Source of the DNA: Candidatus Aphodoplasma sp.
GTDB taxonomy: Bacteria > Bacillota > Clostridia > UBA1381 > UMGS1253
Direction of reading: 5' to 3'
DNA: 64,000 nt
Assembly: GCA_045541115.1 (NCBI GenBank)
Contig: JAZQIM010000014.1
Span: 65,832 to 129,831 of the forward strand
The notes under the pieces were generated by a model. That model worked only from the letters and a program-made list of their open reading frames with translations, was not told the origin of the DNA and made no database searches. Position 1 is the first letter of the stretch. Every line of letters begins with the position of its first letter. Below, piece by piece: positions 2,884-37,006 of the stretch. The position numbers and the translations under genes were made by a program.

Positions 2884-3687
2884 TTACATACCACTTCCGG
2901 CAACTATTTCTGTGATTTCCTGTGTGATGCTACCTTGTCTTGCGCGATTATATTCAAGTGTAAGATTTTCAATCATCTCCGACGCATTCTTTCCTGCAGA
3001 ATCCATCGCAAATCTTCTTGCCACAACTTCACAAGTAAAGCTCTCTCTTACTGCCTCAAGTATCTTTGAAGCAACATATTCTTCGATAAGCGCCTCAAGT
3101 ATCGTCTTTTCATCAGGTTCAAAAATGATATCCGCCTTAGAGTTAATATCCTTTTTCTCCAAAGGCATTATCCATGTTATCTGAGGCTCCTGAACCATCA
3201 TCGAAGTATATTTCGTTGATACAATTCCAACCTTTTCGTAATTGCCTTCTTTAAAGTCATTGCATAATTTTTTTGCAAGTTCAATCGCCTGTGAATACGA
3301 ATATCCTTCAGCCTTTGTAATCTCCTTTTTATATCGTTCGGATGCTCTCTTGCCGATAGGATAAATATCGTTAAAATCAATTTTTTCAGTCACTTTAAAT
3401 ATGTTTGAGTTATATCCACCCGCAAGTCCGCGGTCACCTGCAATTACGATGAGGCAAATCTTTTTTTCCTCGCCACTTTTCATATATTCGCTTTTCTCGC
3501 ACACTCTCGACGATGAAAGCATATCAATCGTTGTTTGCATAGCGCTCGCGTACTGACGGCTCTTTGTCATCGCATTCGTGGCACCTCTGATTTTTGCAGA
3601 TGCAACAAGCCCCATCGCCTTTGTCAAGTGCAAGGTTGAGTCGACACTTTTTATTCGGTTTTTCAAGCTTTTTGTATCTATACCCAT
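2884..3687 (-). CDS. atpG: F1 ATP synthase gamma subunit
   Basis: 267 aa, located between atpA and atpD. Gamma-type terminal helices (IKSVDST...TKAM at the N-terminus, ARQGSITQEITEIVAG at the C-terminus). Confidence 0.9.
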   Translation of the reverse strand: MGIDTKSLKNRIKSVDSTLHLTKAMGLVASAKIRGATNAMTKSRQYASAMQTTIDMLSSSRVCEKSEYMKSGEEKKICLIVIAGDRGLAGGYNSNIFKVTEKIDFNDIYPIGKRASERYKKEITKAEGYSYSQAIELAKKLCNDFKEGNYEKVGIVSTKYTSMMVQEPQITWIMPLEKKDINSKADIIFEPDEKTILEALIEEYVASKILEAVRESFTCEVVARRFAMDSAGKNASEMIENLTLEYNRARQGSITQEITEIVAGSGM

Positions 3688-33805: not shown

Positions 33806-33843
33806 ATTGCGAGGCATAAGGTTTAGATGCAGATCTTTTTTAA
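33806..33843. repeat. Junction module D, copy 1 (3' side of the RT gene)
   Basis: attgcgaGGcataaggtttagatgcaGATCttttttaa. It shares attgcga and a 17-nt identical core (33815-33831) with copy 2. Confidence 0.8.
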
Positions 33844-33866
33844 CTCCATATCACATAAAGTTAAAG

Positions 33867-34805
33867 TTAAAAAATATTTTGCTTTTCGGTAAATTTGATT
33901 TTATCTATCAACCATTTTTTATAACCCATCATTTCGACATTTGCCGCATCTACTGATAAAACATAATTAACCTTTCCAAGCAATTTTTTCAAATAATCTT
34001 GTTCACTTATATCGAGCTGTTTTTTCTGTAAATGAGATGCTACACCAAATTTTTTACAGTAATACAATTCCTGTCTGATTTTCTTTCTGTATGACAACGA
34101 TGTATTTATTTTTTCATTTACTATAATACCTGTAACAATCTGTTTTTGTCCTTTGCGAGCAACAGTCGTTTTTGCATCATTAAGATAAAAACCCATTTTT
34201 TTAAGCTCTTCTTTTACAAACTCAATCACTTCTCTGTGGTTAAAAGCACCTGAAAAAGTCATATCATCGCAATATCTGCTATATCTTATTTTTCTTTCTT
34301 TACACCATGCACCAACTGCATTATCAAAGTCTTTCATAATAATATTTGAAATAATCGGTGATGTTGGTGCACCCTGAGGCAAAGCATCTTTATATAAGCA
34401 AAGTATTGATAACAAAATACGATTCTTTTCTGAGTATTTTTCTTTAACAAAAACCTTTTCTTTAACCATAGGATAAATTATGTGGTCAAAGAAATGTCTG
34501 ATATCCAATTTAAGTATAGTATTTTGCTTAAGGTGTGGATAAGCATTCTTAACGGTTGAAGCACCATATTTATATGCTGTTGCATATGGTGAAACCTCTT
34601 CATATACAAGAAGTTTTTCAGCTATTCTTTTTTGCACTGCCTTCAAAAATTCATTTGGAACAGAAAGTTCTCTATATTCTCCGTTCTTTTTCAAAATTTT
34701 TGTTTGATAATAGTGTGAATGAATATGGTTGCTAAGCGAGTATAATGCTTTTGCTGAAACACCAAGGTCATTCGTCAAAGAGGAAAGCTCCTTATATACA
34801 ATCAT
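33867..34805 (-). CDS. Retron-type reverse transcriptase
   Basis: 312 aa from ATG 34805 (AGGAGG 8-13 nt upstream). RT blocks LDIRHFF and LPQGAPTSPIISN, and catalytic YCDD (nt 34263-34274). Retron signatures NAYPH (NAxxH, nt 34533-34547) and VTG (nt 34128-34136). No maturase or endonuclease domains. Confidence 0.88.
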   Translation of the reverse strand: MIVYKELSSLTNDLGVSAKALYSLSNHIHSHYYQTKILKKNGEYRELSVPNEFLKAVQKRIAEKLLVYEEVSPYATAYKYGASTVKNAYPHLKQNTILKLDIRHFFDHIIYPMVKEKVFVKEKYSEKNRILLSILCLYKDALPQGAPTSPIISNIIMKDFDNAVGAWCKERKIRYSRYCDDMTFSGAFNHREVIEFVKEELKKMGFYLNDAKTTVARKGQKQIVTGIIVNEKINTSLSYRKKIRQELYYCKKFGVASHLQKKQLDISEQDYLKKLLGKVNYVLSVDAANVEMMGYKKWLIDKIKFTEKQNIF

Positions 34806-34830
34806 TATTAAACTTTCCTCCTTTCTGAAT

Positions 34831-35009
34831 GTTGTGGAACAAAACAATGTGAATTACGATGTTGTGTAGCTGTATTTTAGCCCATGAAGTGGGCATTTAT
34901 ATACAGCGAAATCAACTTCGTATGAACGAAGTGAATACTTATAAATGTTACTTCCCAACAACGACTCGTTGTCGGTGTCAAAGTTTATTGACTTGCTCTT
35001 ATGTTCCAC
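34831..35009 (-). ncRNA. Predicted retron msr-msd non-coding RNA
   Basis: Read on the minus strand. a1 is GTGGAACAtAA (35009-34999) and pairs with a2 TTtTGTTCCAC (34844-34834). Candidate branching G at 34998 (or 34996, in an AGC). Hairpins at 34977-34992, 34955-34975, 34915-34932 and 34869-34907. a2 ends 29 nt before the RT ATG. A TATAAT box lies 7 nt upstream of a1. Confidence 0.55.
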
Positions 35010-35015
35010 TTTTTT

Positions 35016-35021
35016 ATTATA
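35016..35021 (-). promoter_or_regulatory. -10 box (TATAAT) positioned to start transcription at the a1 arm of the predicted retron RNA
   Basis: The minus strand reads tttcagTATAATaaaaaaGTGGAACA. The upstream region is AT-rich and has no good -35 hexamer. Confidence 0.35.
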
Positions 35022-35086
35022 CTGAAATCACTATCCTATAAAAAGGACAATGAAACAATAAACCAATTTGAGAACTACATATTACT

Positions 35087-35108
35087 TTTCGACATTATTC
35101 GACATTCT
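35087..35108. repeat. Junction module U, orphan copy upstream of the retron promoter (no ORF, RBS lost)
   Basis: Minus strand: gaaTGTCGAAtaaTGTCGAAAag, a tandem TGTCGAA at a 10-nt period. Confidence 0.7.
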
Positions 35109-35112
35109 TTAT

Positions 35113-36430: not shown

Positions 36431-36462
36431 AAGACTGTATAATCCGGATGCCAATCTTTTTT
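36431..36462. repeat. Junction module H, copy 2 (degenerate), upstream of the PsiE-like gene
   Basis: aagactgtataatccggatgccaatctttttt compared with aagactgtgtaaactggatgacagtcttttttt. Confidence 0.65.
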
Positions 36463-37006
36463 AACAATAATTAGTGTAGAAATATCCCTTATTTACATAT
36501 TCACTAACCAAATCTGATTTTTTATCTATTTCACCTGTAACCAACTTTAAATATGTATAAAATATACGTATTTCTTCTCTATCCAAAGTCATAGTAAAAA
36601 CATTTGAACCCATAGCACCATCGTCGCACCAAAAATGAATATTAAAATCAACAGATATATCCAATGTTACAGAGCCATCCTTATACCAAACTTTACCCGG
36701 CTCACTGTATAATGTTGTTATTGGACTCATATCAAATTCAAAATCGGGTTCTGCAAATCTAACAGTGCATCTTTCTTTCATATTTCCTTCTAGCAAATCT
36801 TTAAATACACTTTTCAAATAGTCTATTTCATCGTTTAGAAAAGCCTCCCAACCTTCAATATTATAATTAATGTACTTACTTTTTAAGGAAAAGTTTGTGT
36901 TGCACCAATCATAATCTACAGTCTCTTCAGTCGGTTTTTTATAATTATATATTTCAAACCATAAGTCCACATCACATATATTCATATGCAATTTCAACTT
37001 TTCCAC
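36461..37006 (-). CDS. Hypothetical protein, tentatively WapI-like immunity protein
   Basis: 181 aa. The segment DYDWCNTNFSLKS...FLNDEIDYLKSVFKDLLEG recalls the WapI pattern DYWDANWLK...L..DLKRFYESLQKL. The true start may be an internal TTG or ATG (about 36994 or 36985). Confidence 0.35.
   Translation of the reverse strand: MEKLKLHMNICDVDLWFEIYNYKKPTEETVDYDWCNTNFSLKSKYINYNIEGWEAFLNDEIDYLKSVFKDLLEGNMKERCTVRFAEPDFEFDMSPITTLYSEPGKVWYKDGSVTLDISVDFNIHFWCDDGAMGSNVFTMTLDREEIRIFYTYLKLVTGEIDKKSDLVSEYVNKGYFYTNYC

Follow-up and report, generated by a model that had tools for sequence, protein, structure and literature searches.

A Probable Self-Contained Retron of the Ec107 Lineage Lying Between Junction Elements in a Gut Clostridial Genome

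Introduction

The closest described relative of the element treated here is Retron-Eco5 (Ec107) of Escherichia coli, whose reverse transcriptase (RT), RT-Ec107 or RT-Eco5, has been reported to carry YCDD and to lie in a 1.3-kb insertion without a mobile element, and whose expression is induced by starvation (PMC6868368). The Ec107 branch, for which 59 RTs have been described without a specific associated protein, shares a node with the PRTase-linked RTs (Mestre 2020, PMC7736814). In the SPIRE survey, the group clade2_Ec107like, with 192 representatives, is the second most abundant retron group (93% Bacillota, 91% host-associated); no recurrent accessory modules have been found for it, and it has been given low novelty priority (10.64898/2026.05.14.725207). 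The sister lineage is that of the Type III-A retrons, which combine the RT with a PRTase-like and a winged-helix protein. Here, we describe a locus on the minus strand of a 64,000-nucleotide stretch of DNA (positions 65,832 to 129,831 of contig JAZQIM010000014.1, hereafter the window), which an earlier note, made from the letters alone, had read as a retron. With a probability of roughly 0.8, the locus is a self-contained two-component retron, consisting of RT and msr-msd non-coding RNA (ncRNA), of the Ec107 (Retron-Eco5, clade 2) lineage. It adds a copy to an already known effector-less lineage; its cassette context is unexpected and possibly undescribed.

The likeness to Retron-Eco5 extends from an RT of about 310 aa with NAxxH, YCDD and VTG to the order of the ncRNA elements (a1, (U)AGC region, hairpin 1, hairpin 2 with a CGAGUCG apex, msd hairpin, a2) and to the arrangement as an intergenic unit of about 1.3 kb with no accessory gene, prophage or transposase nearby, and RT profile, tree and reciprocal covariance-model search are concordant. 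The window RT is, however, only 44% identical in protein to its counterpart from the classical Ec107 locus of E. coli, between pyrE and slmA (E 5e-81), its host is a gut Clostridial bacterium (Oscillospiraceae/Ruminococcaceae-like) and not an enterobacterium, and the E. coli locus lacks the cassette-junction element that bounds the window copy. Multicopy single-stranded DNA (msDNA) has been documented for Ec107, whereas the window copy is known from its sequence. With Type III-A retrons, the locus shares the sister position of the RT and second-best scores on RT_III-A profiles, but it has neither a PRTase nor a winged helix-turn-helix (wHTH) gene, it carries YCDD instead of YADD, and the covariance model of its ncRNA misses III-A loci. 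That an effector is missing and that the catalytic box reads YCDD are published hallmarks of the Ec107-like lineage (Mestre 2020, Simon 2019, SPIRE preprint 2026) and not a sign of a new partner; two seemingly special traits are the defining traits of a lineage that ranks with the most abundant retron groups of gut Firmicutes.

Reverse Transcriptase and Family Placement

34805→33867, minus strand: retron RT gene, 312 aa, ATG at 34805, stop at 33867-33869 (ORF list and sequence)
34822-34817, minus strand: ribosome-binding site (RBS) AGGAGG, 11 nt 5' of the ATG (sequence)

A program-made list of open reading frames (ORFs) puts the start of the RT farther out, at a TTG at 34847 (326 aa); the ATG at 34805 has been preferred because of the AGGAGG at 34822-34817 and because homologs of 303-312 aa begin with MIVYKEL. 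The GGAGG block of the RBS is conserved in the alignment of relatives. The features that the earlier note had read in the frame 33867-34805 have all been recovered, with the minus strand, which it had left unstated, to be added: the AGGAGG, the RT blocks LDIRHFF and LPQGAPTSPIISN, YCDD at residues 178-181 (nt 34274-34263), NAYPH at residues 87-91 (nt 34547-34533) and VTG at residues 224-226 (nt 34136-34128). Across 20 homologs, N87, A88, H91, T225 and G226 are invariant. The claim of a protein free of fused domains holds as well, as Pfam finds RVT_1 only (E 4e-22).

Profile searches place this RT firmly among retron enzymes. The PADLOC profile RT_Ec107-like matches at E 9.6e-128 (424 bits, profile positions 7-304 of 307), the second-best profile, RT_III-A, reaches 336 bits and is thus about 90 bits lower, and every one of the top 25 PADLOC profiles is a retron RT. 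NCBIfam retron models score between 1e-52 and 1e-64 (St85 2.7e-64, Ec67 2.7e-54), far above Drt2 (2e-18), group II (3e-18) and Drt3a (2e-12). The generic RVT_1 as sole Pfam match would suit a non-retron defense or mobile RT (Abi, UG/DRT, group II intron). Profile scores and ncRNA effectively refute this reading: the RT has both NAxxH and VTG, an msr-msd-type ncRNA with a1/a2 pairing lies upstream, and no maturase or endonuclease domain or intron RNA has been found at the locus with Pfam and Rfam. A search with retron profiles was the check that the earlier note had advised, and a place outside the retron clade was what it had named as its refuter; the retron profiles reach 1e-50 to 1e-128, versus 2e-18 for Drt2 and 3e-18 for group II.

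For the family placement, 84 related RTs have been surveyed and arranged in a distance (neighbor-joining, NJ) tree, which carries no support values. The smallest clade containing both the window RT and Ec107 comprises 44 RTs, 40 with YCDD, three with YSDD and one with YGDD, and includes neither a YADD nor a PRTase neighbor; its sister group is YADD and PRTase-linked. RTs at least 43% identical to the window RT, Ec107 included, all have YCDD apart from a few with YSDD, and RTs with an upstream PRTase have YADD throughout (12 of 12). The earlier note had taken YCDD for a minor oddity; it is instead the signature of RT-Ec107 (PMC6868368) and of most of this clade. The E. coli Ec107 RT itself carries NAQPH, YCDD and VTG; of 5426 complete E. 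coli genomes, 382 have it, each with one copy on the chromosome. The PGAP annotation calls it merely a 'reverse transcriptase family protein' (locus L083, E. coli NZ_CM128605.1 121759-128778). Two further enterobacterial RTs (L029 and L036) likewise score best on RT_Ec107-like, and the PRTase-linked RTs score best on RT_III-A. As an observation on the latter type, four loci from Flavobacterium and other Bacteroidota (L040, L041, L044, L047) have YADD RTs that score best on RT_III-A, and a PRTase profile hidden Markov model (HMM) finds no PRTase nearby; common to them are upstream genes for proteins of about 365 and 385 aa (clusters c13 and c5), possibly a divergent accessory pair of the PRTase type.

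Between copies with a synonymous divergence (dS) of 0.5-0.9, the ratio of nonsynonymous to synonymous substitution rates (dN/dS) of the RT amounts to 0.11-0.14, and the RT is under purifying selection. Its GC content of 30.5%, versus 38% for the window, is consistent with horizontal acquisition. Identical-sequence look-ups have returned no record for the RT, and none for three other proteins of the window (a PEMT-like protein, a 136-aa protein and P0121).

The msr-msd RNA

35021-35016, minus strand: -10 box TATAAT of the retron's own promoter, with a weak -35 element (sequence)
35010→34829, minus strand: retron ncRNA (msr-msd), 182 nt (fold z-score, consensus structure, covariance model)
35009-35002, minus strand: a1, GTGGAACA, pairing with a2
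34992-34977, minus strand: msr hairpin 1 (alignment of relatives)
34975-34955, minus strand: msr hairpin 2, GAG loop, conserved CGAGUCG apex
about 34925-34853, minus strand: long msd hairpin (alignment of relatives)
34842-34835, minus strand: a2, TGTTCCAC, pairing with a1

The structured non-coding stretch with a -10 box that had been noted upstream of the RT is borne out by folding. The 235 nt upstream of the RT reach -61.6 kcal/mol versus -39.3±3.9 for shuffled sequences (z -5.7), with 0 of 200 shuffles as good, and the TATAAT sits 6 nt ahead of the first paired base; a TATAAT-like box has been found equally distant from a1 in the related loci L081, L001, L007 and L015. The architecture is conserved upstream of the RT in the alignment of 20 related RTs, and the RNAalifold consensus of 11 sequences holds 27 pairs, of which 11 are backed by compensatory double changes. 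The ends covary in the same manner, from GTGGAACA/TGTTCCAC in the window to GTTAAACA/TGTTTAAC in L004.

A covariance model has been trained on Clostridial ncRNA copies only, with a shortened calibration that makes its E-values rough. In the window, it finds one site, 34829-35010, and it recovers the E. coli Ec107 msr-msd at full length, directly 5' of the RT (L083, positions 3003-3190, 35 bits, E about 1e-5). It also matches L029 and L036 (Pseudocitrobacter and Yokenella), and on the PRTase-linked (III-A) loci it finds nothing. A scan of 32-38 kb against Rfam at E≤1 gave no match, and RNA of this type has no Rfam family. In the aligned region of the branching G, the relatives read (U/C)AGC(G) and the window copy reads AAGAGC, within which G34998 or G34996 is the candidate branching nucleotide. 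Judged from sequence and predicted fold, the ncRNA is a bona fide Ec107-type msr-msd, and the retron identity that the earlier note had assigned is sustained by the PADLOC match together with motifs and ncRNA. In three Oscillospiraceae relatives (L006, L008, L003), the msd region is enlarged by an insertion of about 28 nt, CCACCGCGGCACATTTCATGTGCCCGCA (columns about 200-230 of alignment A2), which makes an additional hairpin and leads to a longer predicted msDNA.

These data also bear on the idea of a decaying III-A retron that has lost its PRTase and is non-functional, for which it can be said that loss of the associated protein has been called plausible for the Ec107 branch (Mestre 2020, PMC7736814). 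A remnant of this kind is scarcely credible in view of the low dN/dS, of catalytic and retron-specific motifs that are intact across the 44 clade members, of an ncRNA maintained through compensatory changes, and of the abundance of the lineage in both the SPIRE set (192 representatives) and the complete E. coli genomes (382/5426).

The Retron Cassette and Its Junction Element

35112→33806, minus strand: retron cassette, 1307 bp (homology to L142, junction alignments, break in L146 at 33806/33805)
35189-35081, minus strand: upstream copy of the junction element (EL), core TGCATCTAAACCTTATGTGTCGCAAT at 35138-35113, direct repeat D2 (nhmmer E 6.6e-23)
33885-33798, minus strand: downstream EL copy, core TGCATCTAAACCTTATGCCTCGCAAT at 33831-33806 (nhmmer E 6.8e-17)

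The retron lies between two copies of a direct repeat of 43 nt (84% identity), spaced 1307 nt apart; the repeat belongs to a longer junction element, here called EL. On the gene strand, this element of about 110 nt runs from the stop of the gene before it through an AT-rich 5' part and the core TGCATCTAAACCTTATGnnTCGCAAT to the tail ATGGATATGTCGAA-N4-TGTCGAAAGGAG; some 37 nt separate the core from the next start codon, and the EL gives RBS and start context to the following gene. Cassettes begin with ATGGATATGTCGAA-N4-TGTCGAAAGGAG and end with TGCATCTAAACCTTATGnnTCGCAAT or the variant TTGGCATCTAGATTATACAGTCTTTATA. In the retron cassette, the order is EL tail ATAAAGAATGTCGAATAATGTCGAAAAG, a vestigial ATGTAG, promoter, ncRNA, RT, EL 5' part and EL core. 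In the upstream EL, the preceding cassette ends and the retron cassette starts, and the downstream EL overlaps the last RT codons and the stop. The final ~8 RT codons differ from those of L081 and L082, and RT homology to these two loci stops at 33894.

A profile search has found exactly two EL copies in the window and none around 83 other retron loci. The 26-nt core is nevertheless widespread, with 73 exact copies in 57 RT-free metagenome contigs plus the window, often 2-5 per contig (EL loci are numbered L084-L145); all 11 multi-core contigs are co-oriented (11/11), and L127 holds five exact cores in 3.9 kb. The genes between EL copies are unrelated to each other, with 109 Pfam families in 121 proteins, including restriction-modification enzymes, DUF559, DUF4288 and β-lactamases. 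The 43-nt repeat has been considered as a target-site duplication made by the retron and rejected, since the core is dispersed in the 57 RT-free contigs and absent around other Ec107-like retrons.

The bounds of the cassette follow from two kinds of comparison. The first is L142, whose RT is 99% identical and which shares 98.4% nucleotide identity with the window only over 35105→33806. Both stay aligned through ...GCCTCGCAAT and split at the next base, where L142 continues with a DUF4288 gene and then another EL; its upstream neighbors also differ from those of the window. Retrons with EL parts occur in further contexts in L143, L144 and L145 (86-89% RT identity), and cassettes with DUF4288 and with a 133-aa gene recur in different contigs, with the homology ending inside the EL. 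The second comparison is that with strain L146, in which the flanking housekeeping DNA is 96-99% identical and the EL and the block 35930-33806 are absent. The junctions in this comparison are exact and, taken from the junction alignment, read as follows.

Empty site, L146: ...GAACCAT / CTTTAAAAAAGACTG
Occupied left junction, window: ...GAACCAT / ATGGATGTGTCGAAAGATGTCGAAAGGAG
Occupied right junction, window: ...CCTCGCAAT / TTAAAAAAAGACTG

Two cassettes make up the insert, 35930-35113 and 35112-33806, each with the tail first and the core last, and the insertion has left no target duplication. The interval 33806-35112 is a compact, naturally portable retron unit.

Neighboring Genes and the Question of a Partner

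35930-35113, minus strand: cassette A, with genes of 85 aa (35892-35635) and 136 aa (35598-35188), starting with the EL tail ATGGATGTGTCGAAAGATGTCGAAAGGAG and absent from L146
33044..33715, minus strand: gene for a PEMT/ICMT-like membrane methyltransferase, 223 aa, downstream of the RT (Pfam PEMT 3e-11, ICMT 3e-8)

The earlier note had seen no described effector class beside the RT, and this stands: among 17 neighbor proteins (7 adjacent and 10 more, 26.5-42.6 kb), PADLOC has found no retron effector. Its further suggestion, that the retron may have a partner not yet described or may cooperate with an effector far away, is not upheld, as the Ec107 branch has been described without an associated protein (PMC7736814) and the neighbors are unconserved. 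The ORFs surrounding 80 genome loci, and those in 6 further contexts, have all been clustered, and among loci with an RT identity of at least about 40% (about 50 loci) no conserved neighbor exists. The sole recurrent neighbor is an upstream gene in distant RTs (31-40% identity), which matches PADLOC PRTase_III-A and is often followed by WH_III-A. The clusters c2, c3, c6, c30 and c7 have been tried as hidden accessory genes and discarded; they are generic ABC, MATE, Lon, SLH and SDR paralogs at variable distance and strand. In L081 and L082 (86% RT identity, long contigs), the retron lies between sporulation and housekeeping genes of wholly different kinds, and in total the same retron has been found between unrelated genes in five contexts.

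A tripartite retron with a new adjacent effector, be it the 136-aa, the 85-aa or the PEMT/ICMT-like membrane protein, is very unlikely on these grounds. The 85-aa and 136-aa proteins have no match in Pfam, PADLOC and NCBIfam and their genes are missing along with the retron from L146, and the membrane protein gene lies directly 3' on the same strand, all of which can be counted in favor of this reading. Yet none of the three has a homolog near the RT in the 80 genome loci or in L081, L082 and L142-L145, and the 98.4%-identical retron of L142 has other flanking genes, with DUF4288 downstream. The genes of 85 and 136 aa belong to a cassette apart, which has its own junction element, and no homolog of these genes stands beside the retron in L142-L145, L081 or L082; cassette A is not a partner of the retron. 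A separate promoter, CTGTCA-18-TATAAT at 33794-33765, serves the PEMT-like gene, and promoter and gene are kept in the retron-less L146 and L147; the gene is resident DNA outside the retron.

An effector acting in trans from elsewhere in the genome, for instance a PRTase/wHTH pair as in III-A, is unlikely as well, although it retains some weight: the clade is sister to the PRTase-linked RTs, purifying selection implies that the RT does something, and the visible genome is only 64 kb. On the other side, a local HMM search in all frames of the 64-kb window, built from 12 PRTase and 5 winged-helix (WH) proteins, has found no PRTase- or WH-like ORF, the best E-values being 0.23 and 0.11, and most genomes with orphan retrons lack homologs of known retron-associated proteins (Mestre 2020, PMC7736814). 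Moreover, a 1.3-kb cassette that moves between contexts and strains is hard to square with a specific unlinked gene. We keep to the two-component retron without a dedicated partner gene.

Apart from the retron and the cassettes, the remainder of the window is housekeeping DNA (ATP synthase, ackA-pta, ispH-S1, cmk and others). Among the 10 further neighbors, the only PADLOC match is that of a cytidylate kinase to VakA, which has been dismissed as a defense gene since the protein is cytidylate kinase. Farther away, PADLOC matches mad2 (E 1.7e-20) more than 7 kb from the RT, within 20.2-26.5 or 42.6-51.4 kb, and PD-T4-2_B (E 8e-35) more than 13 kb from the RT, outside 20.2-51.4 kb; a non-RT protein, also more than 13 kb away and outside 20.2-51.4 kb, matches the protease part of RT-Protease_XI (E 2e-9). 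Around these three matches no complete system has been seen, and none of them adjoins the retron.

Proposed Mode of Action

The locus would work in the following way. From the weak sigma-70-type promoter (TATAAT 35021-35016), a single RNA carrying both msr-msd and the RT gene would be transcribed, the 5' part of which is predicted to fold such that the a1/a2 duplex closes the structure, the two msr hairpins are recognized by the RT and the long msd hairpin serves as template. As its primer, the RT presumably uses the 2'-OH of a guanosine that closely follows a1 on the 3' side (G34998 or G34996), and it would copy the msd into msDNA that is still branched to the msr. The RT-msDNA particle would then be the product of the entire genetic unit, because no cognate effector gene is found in cis, which is the norm for the lineage; the unit is probably functional, because it is kept by selection. 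As a best guess, the particle may act via a host- or phage-encoded factor in trans and not via a dedicated toxin. In the literature on the function of effector-less retrons, we have found nothing relevant beyond the starvation-induced expression of Ec107. The unit would travel as cargo of one 1307-bp cassette in a short, strain-variable array bounded by junction elements.

Several points weigh against this interpretation. A window of 64 kb leaves room for an effector elsewhere in the genome, the canonical AGC reads AAGAGC here and leaves the branch point ambiguous, and the NJ tree has neither support values nor Abi, DRT and group II outgroups, which are set apart by profile scores alone. In addition, L081 and L082 (86% RT identity) have the retron without EL; therefore the cassette context belongs to one sub-lineage and not to the family. 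With regard to the meaning of the locus, the 1.3-kb unit of RT and ncRNA is under strong purifying selection while being moved between unrelated contexts, and such a selected, portable unit argues that effector-less retrons function alone and are not decaying remnants.

Relation to Known Cassette Systems

The EL-bounded cassettes share several features with integron cassettes and clusters of attC sites lacking integron-integrases (CALIN), namely arrays in which cassettes of unrelated cargo, mostly of one gene each, all point the same way, junctions formed by the 3' end of one cassette and the 5' end of the next, precise presence or absence without target duplication, and the occurrence of the same cassette in different arrays. 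In contrast to these systems, the EL is conserved in sequence, has no attC-like fold and gives the next gene its RBS and start context, no integrase has been seen nearby in a crude motif screen, and the host is a Firmicute. A classical integron with attC sites has been rejected, since eight EL strands folded as DNA give z-scores from -2.1 to +1.0 and no attC-type hairpin. With crude regular expressions, and no profile search made, neither Tyr- nor Ser-recombinase motifs have been found in the EL contigs or the window. Integrons are almost absent from Firmicutes (PMC9024848). Because the EL lacks an attC-like hairpin, no recombinase motif has been seen nearby and integrons are nearly absent from this phylum, the system is not a classical integron. 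A phage or plasmid origin of the EL has been discarded too, since plasmids gave no match and viral sequences just one contig end.

Xer-dependent dif modules (Acinetobacter pdif and integrative mobile elements exploiting Xer, IMEX) and IS200/IS605 elements are alike in inserting without target duplication beside a short end-like sequence. They differ in that the EL sites are all in direct orientation, unlike those of pdif modules, and that the EL has no strong subterminal hairpins, unlike IS200/IS605; no recombinase or transposase has been identified here, and the comparison has been made by sequence inspection only. By eye, we take the junction TCGCAAT-ATGGAT-ATGTCGA to be dif-type-like, with two imperfect inverted arms around a 6-bp spacer, which may resemble the core site of a tyrosine recombinase.

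The absence of target duplication, the co-oriented arrays, the exchange between strains and the integron-like organization without attC hairpins lead us to propose, tentatively and at somewhat less than even odds, that the retron is cargo of an undescribed site-specific gene-cassette system of gut Clostridia. A Firmicute cassette system of this kind has not been found described in the literature, where searches cannot prove absence. If true, the proposal would provide the first concrete route between genomes for effector-less Ec107-type retrons, which have long been noted to be without a mobility function. If confirmed, it would mean integron-like gene capture in a phylum thought to be without integrons and would account for the spread of a retron that has no mobility gene.

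Other Cassettes and the Strain-Variable Interval

37035-36430, minus strand: cassette C, with a WapI-like immunity gene, 181 aa (gene 36461-37006; Pfam WapI PF24716, 1.2e-9)

Cassette C has an EL-type tail and the variant core TTGGCATCCGGATTATACAGTCTTCATA and is precisely absent from L146. Its WapI-like gene has no toxin gene in its vicinity and is thus an orphan immunity gene. Three small genes adjoin it, those of 85 and 136 aa and one of 105 aa, which is TIGR04076. The interval from DUF4363 to rpiR (window 33.8-41.6 kb) constitutes a strain-variable hotspot, which is empty in L148 (9880-10001) and in L146 (8126-9290) holds six genes, coding for ADH, PHP, SDR, a 121-aa, a 152-aa and a PEMT-like protein; L147 has been compared as well. 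The hotspot of the window is about 6.8 kb longer than that of L146, owing to the blocks 41585-37474, 37035-36430 and 35930-33806. The first of these window-specific blocks contains genes for a flavodoxin-like protein, NagB and a 773-aa GGDEF protein and shows at its bounds a promoter-like direct repeat of about 70 nt (AAATTGACTAT...TTTAATGATAAAATGA), which suggests that it has been gained or lost by recombination between duplicated promoters rather than via the EL.

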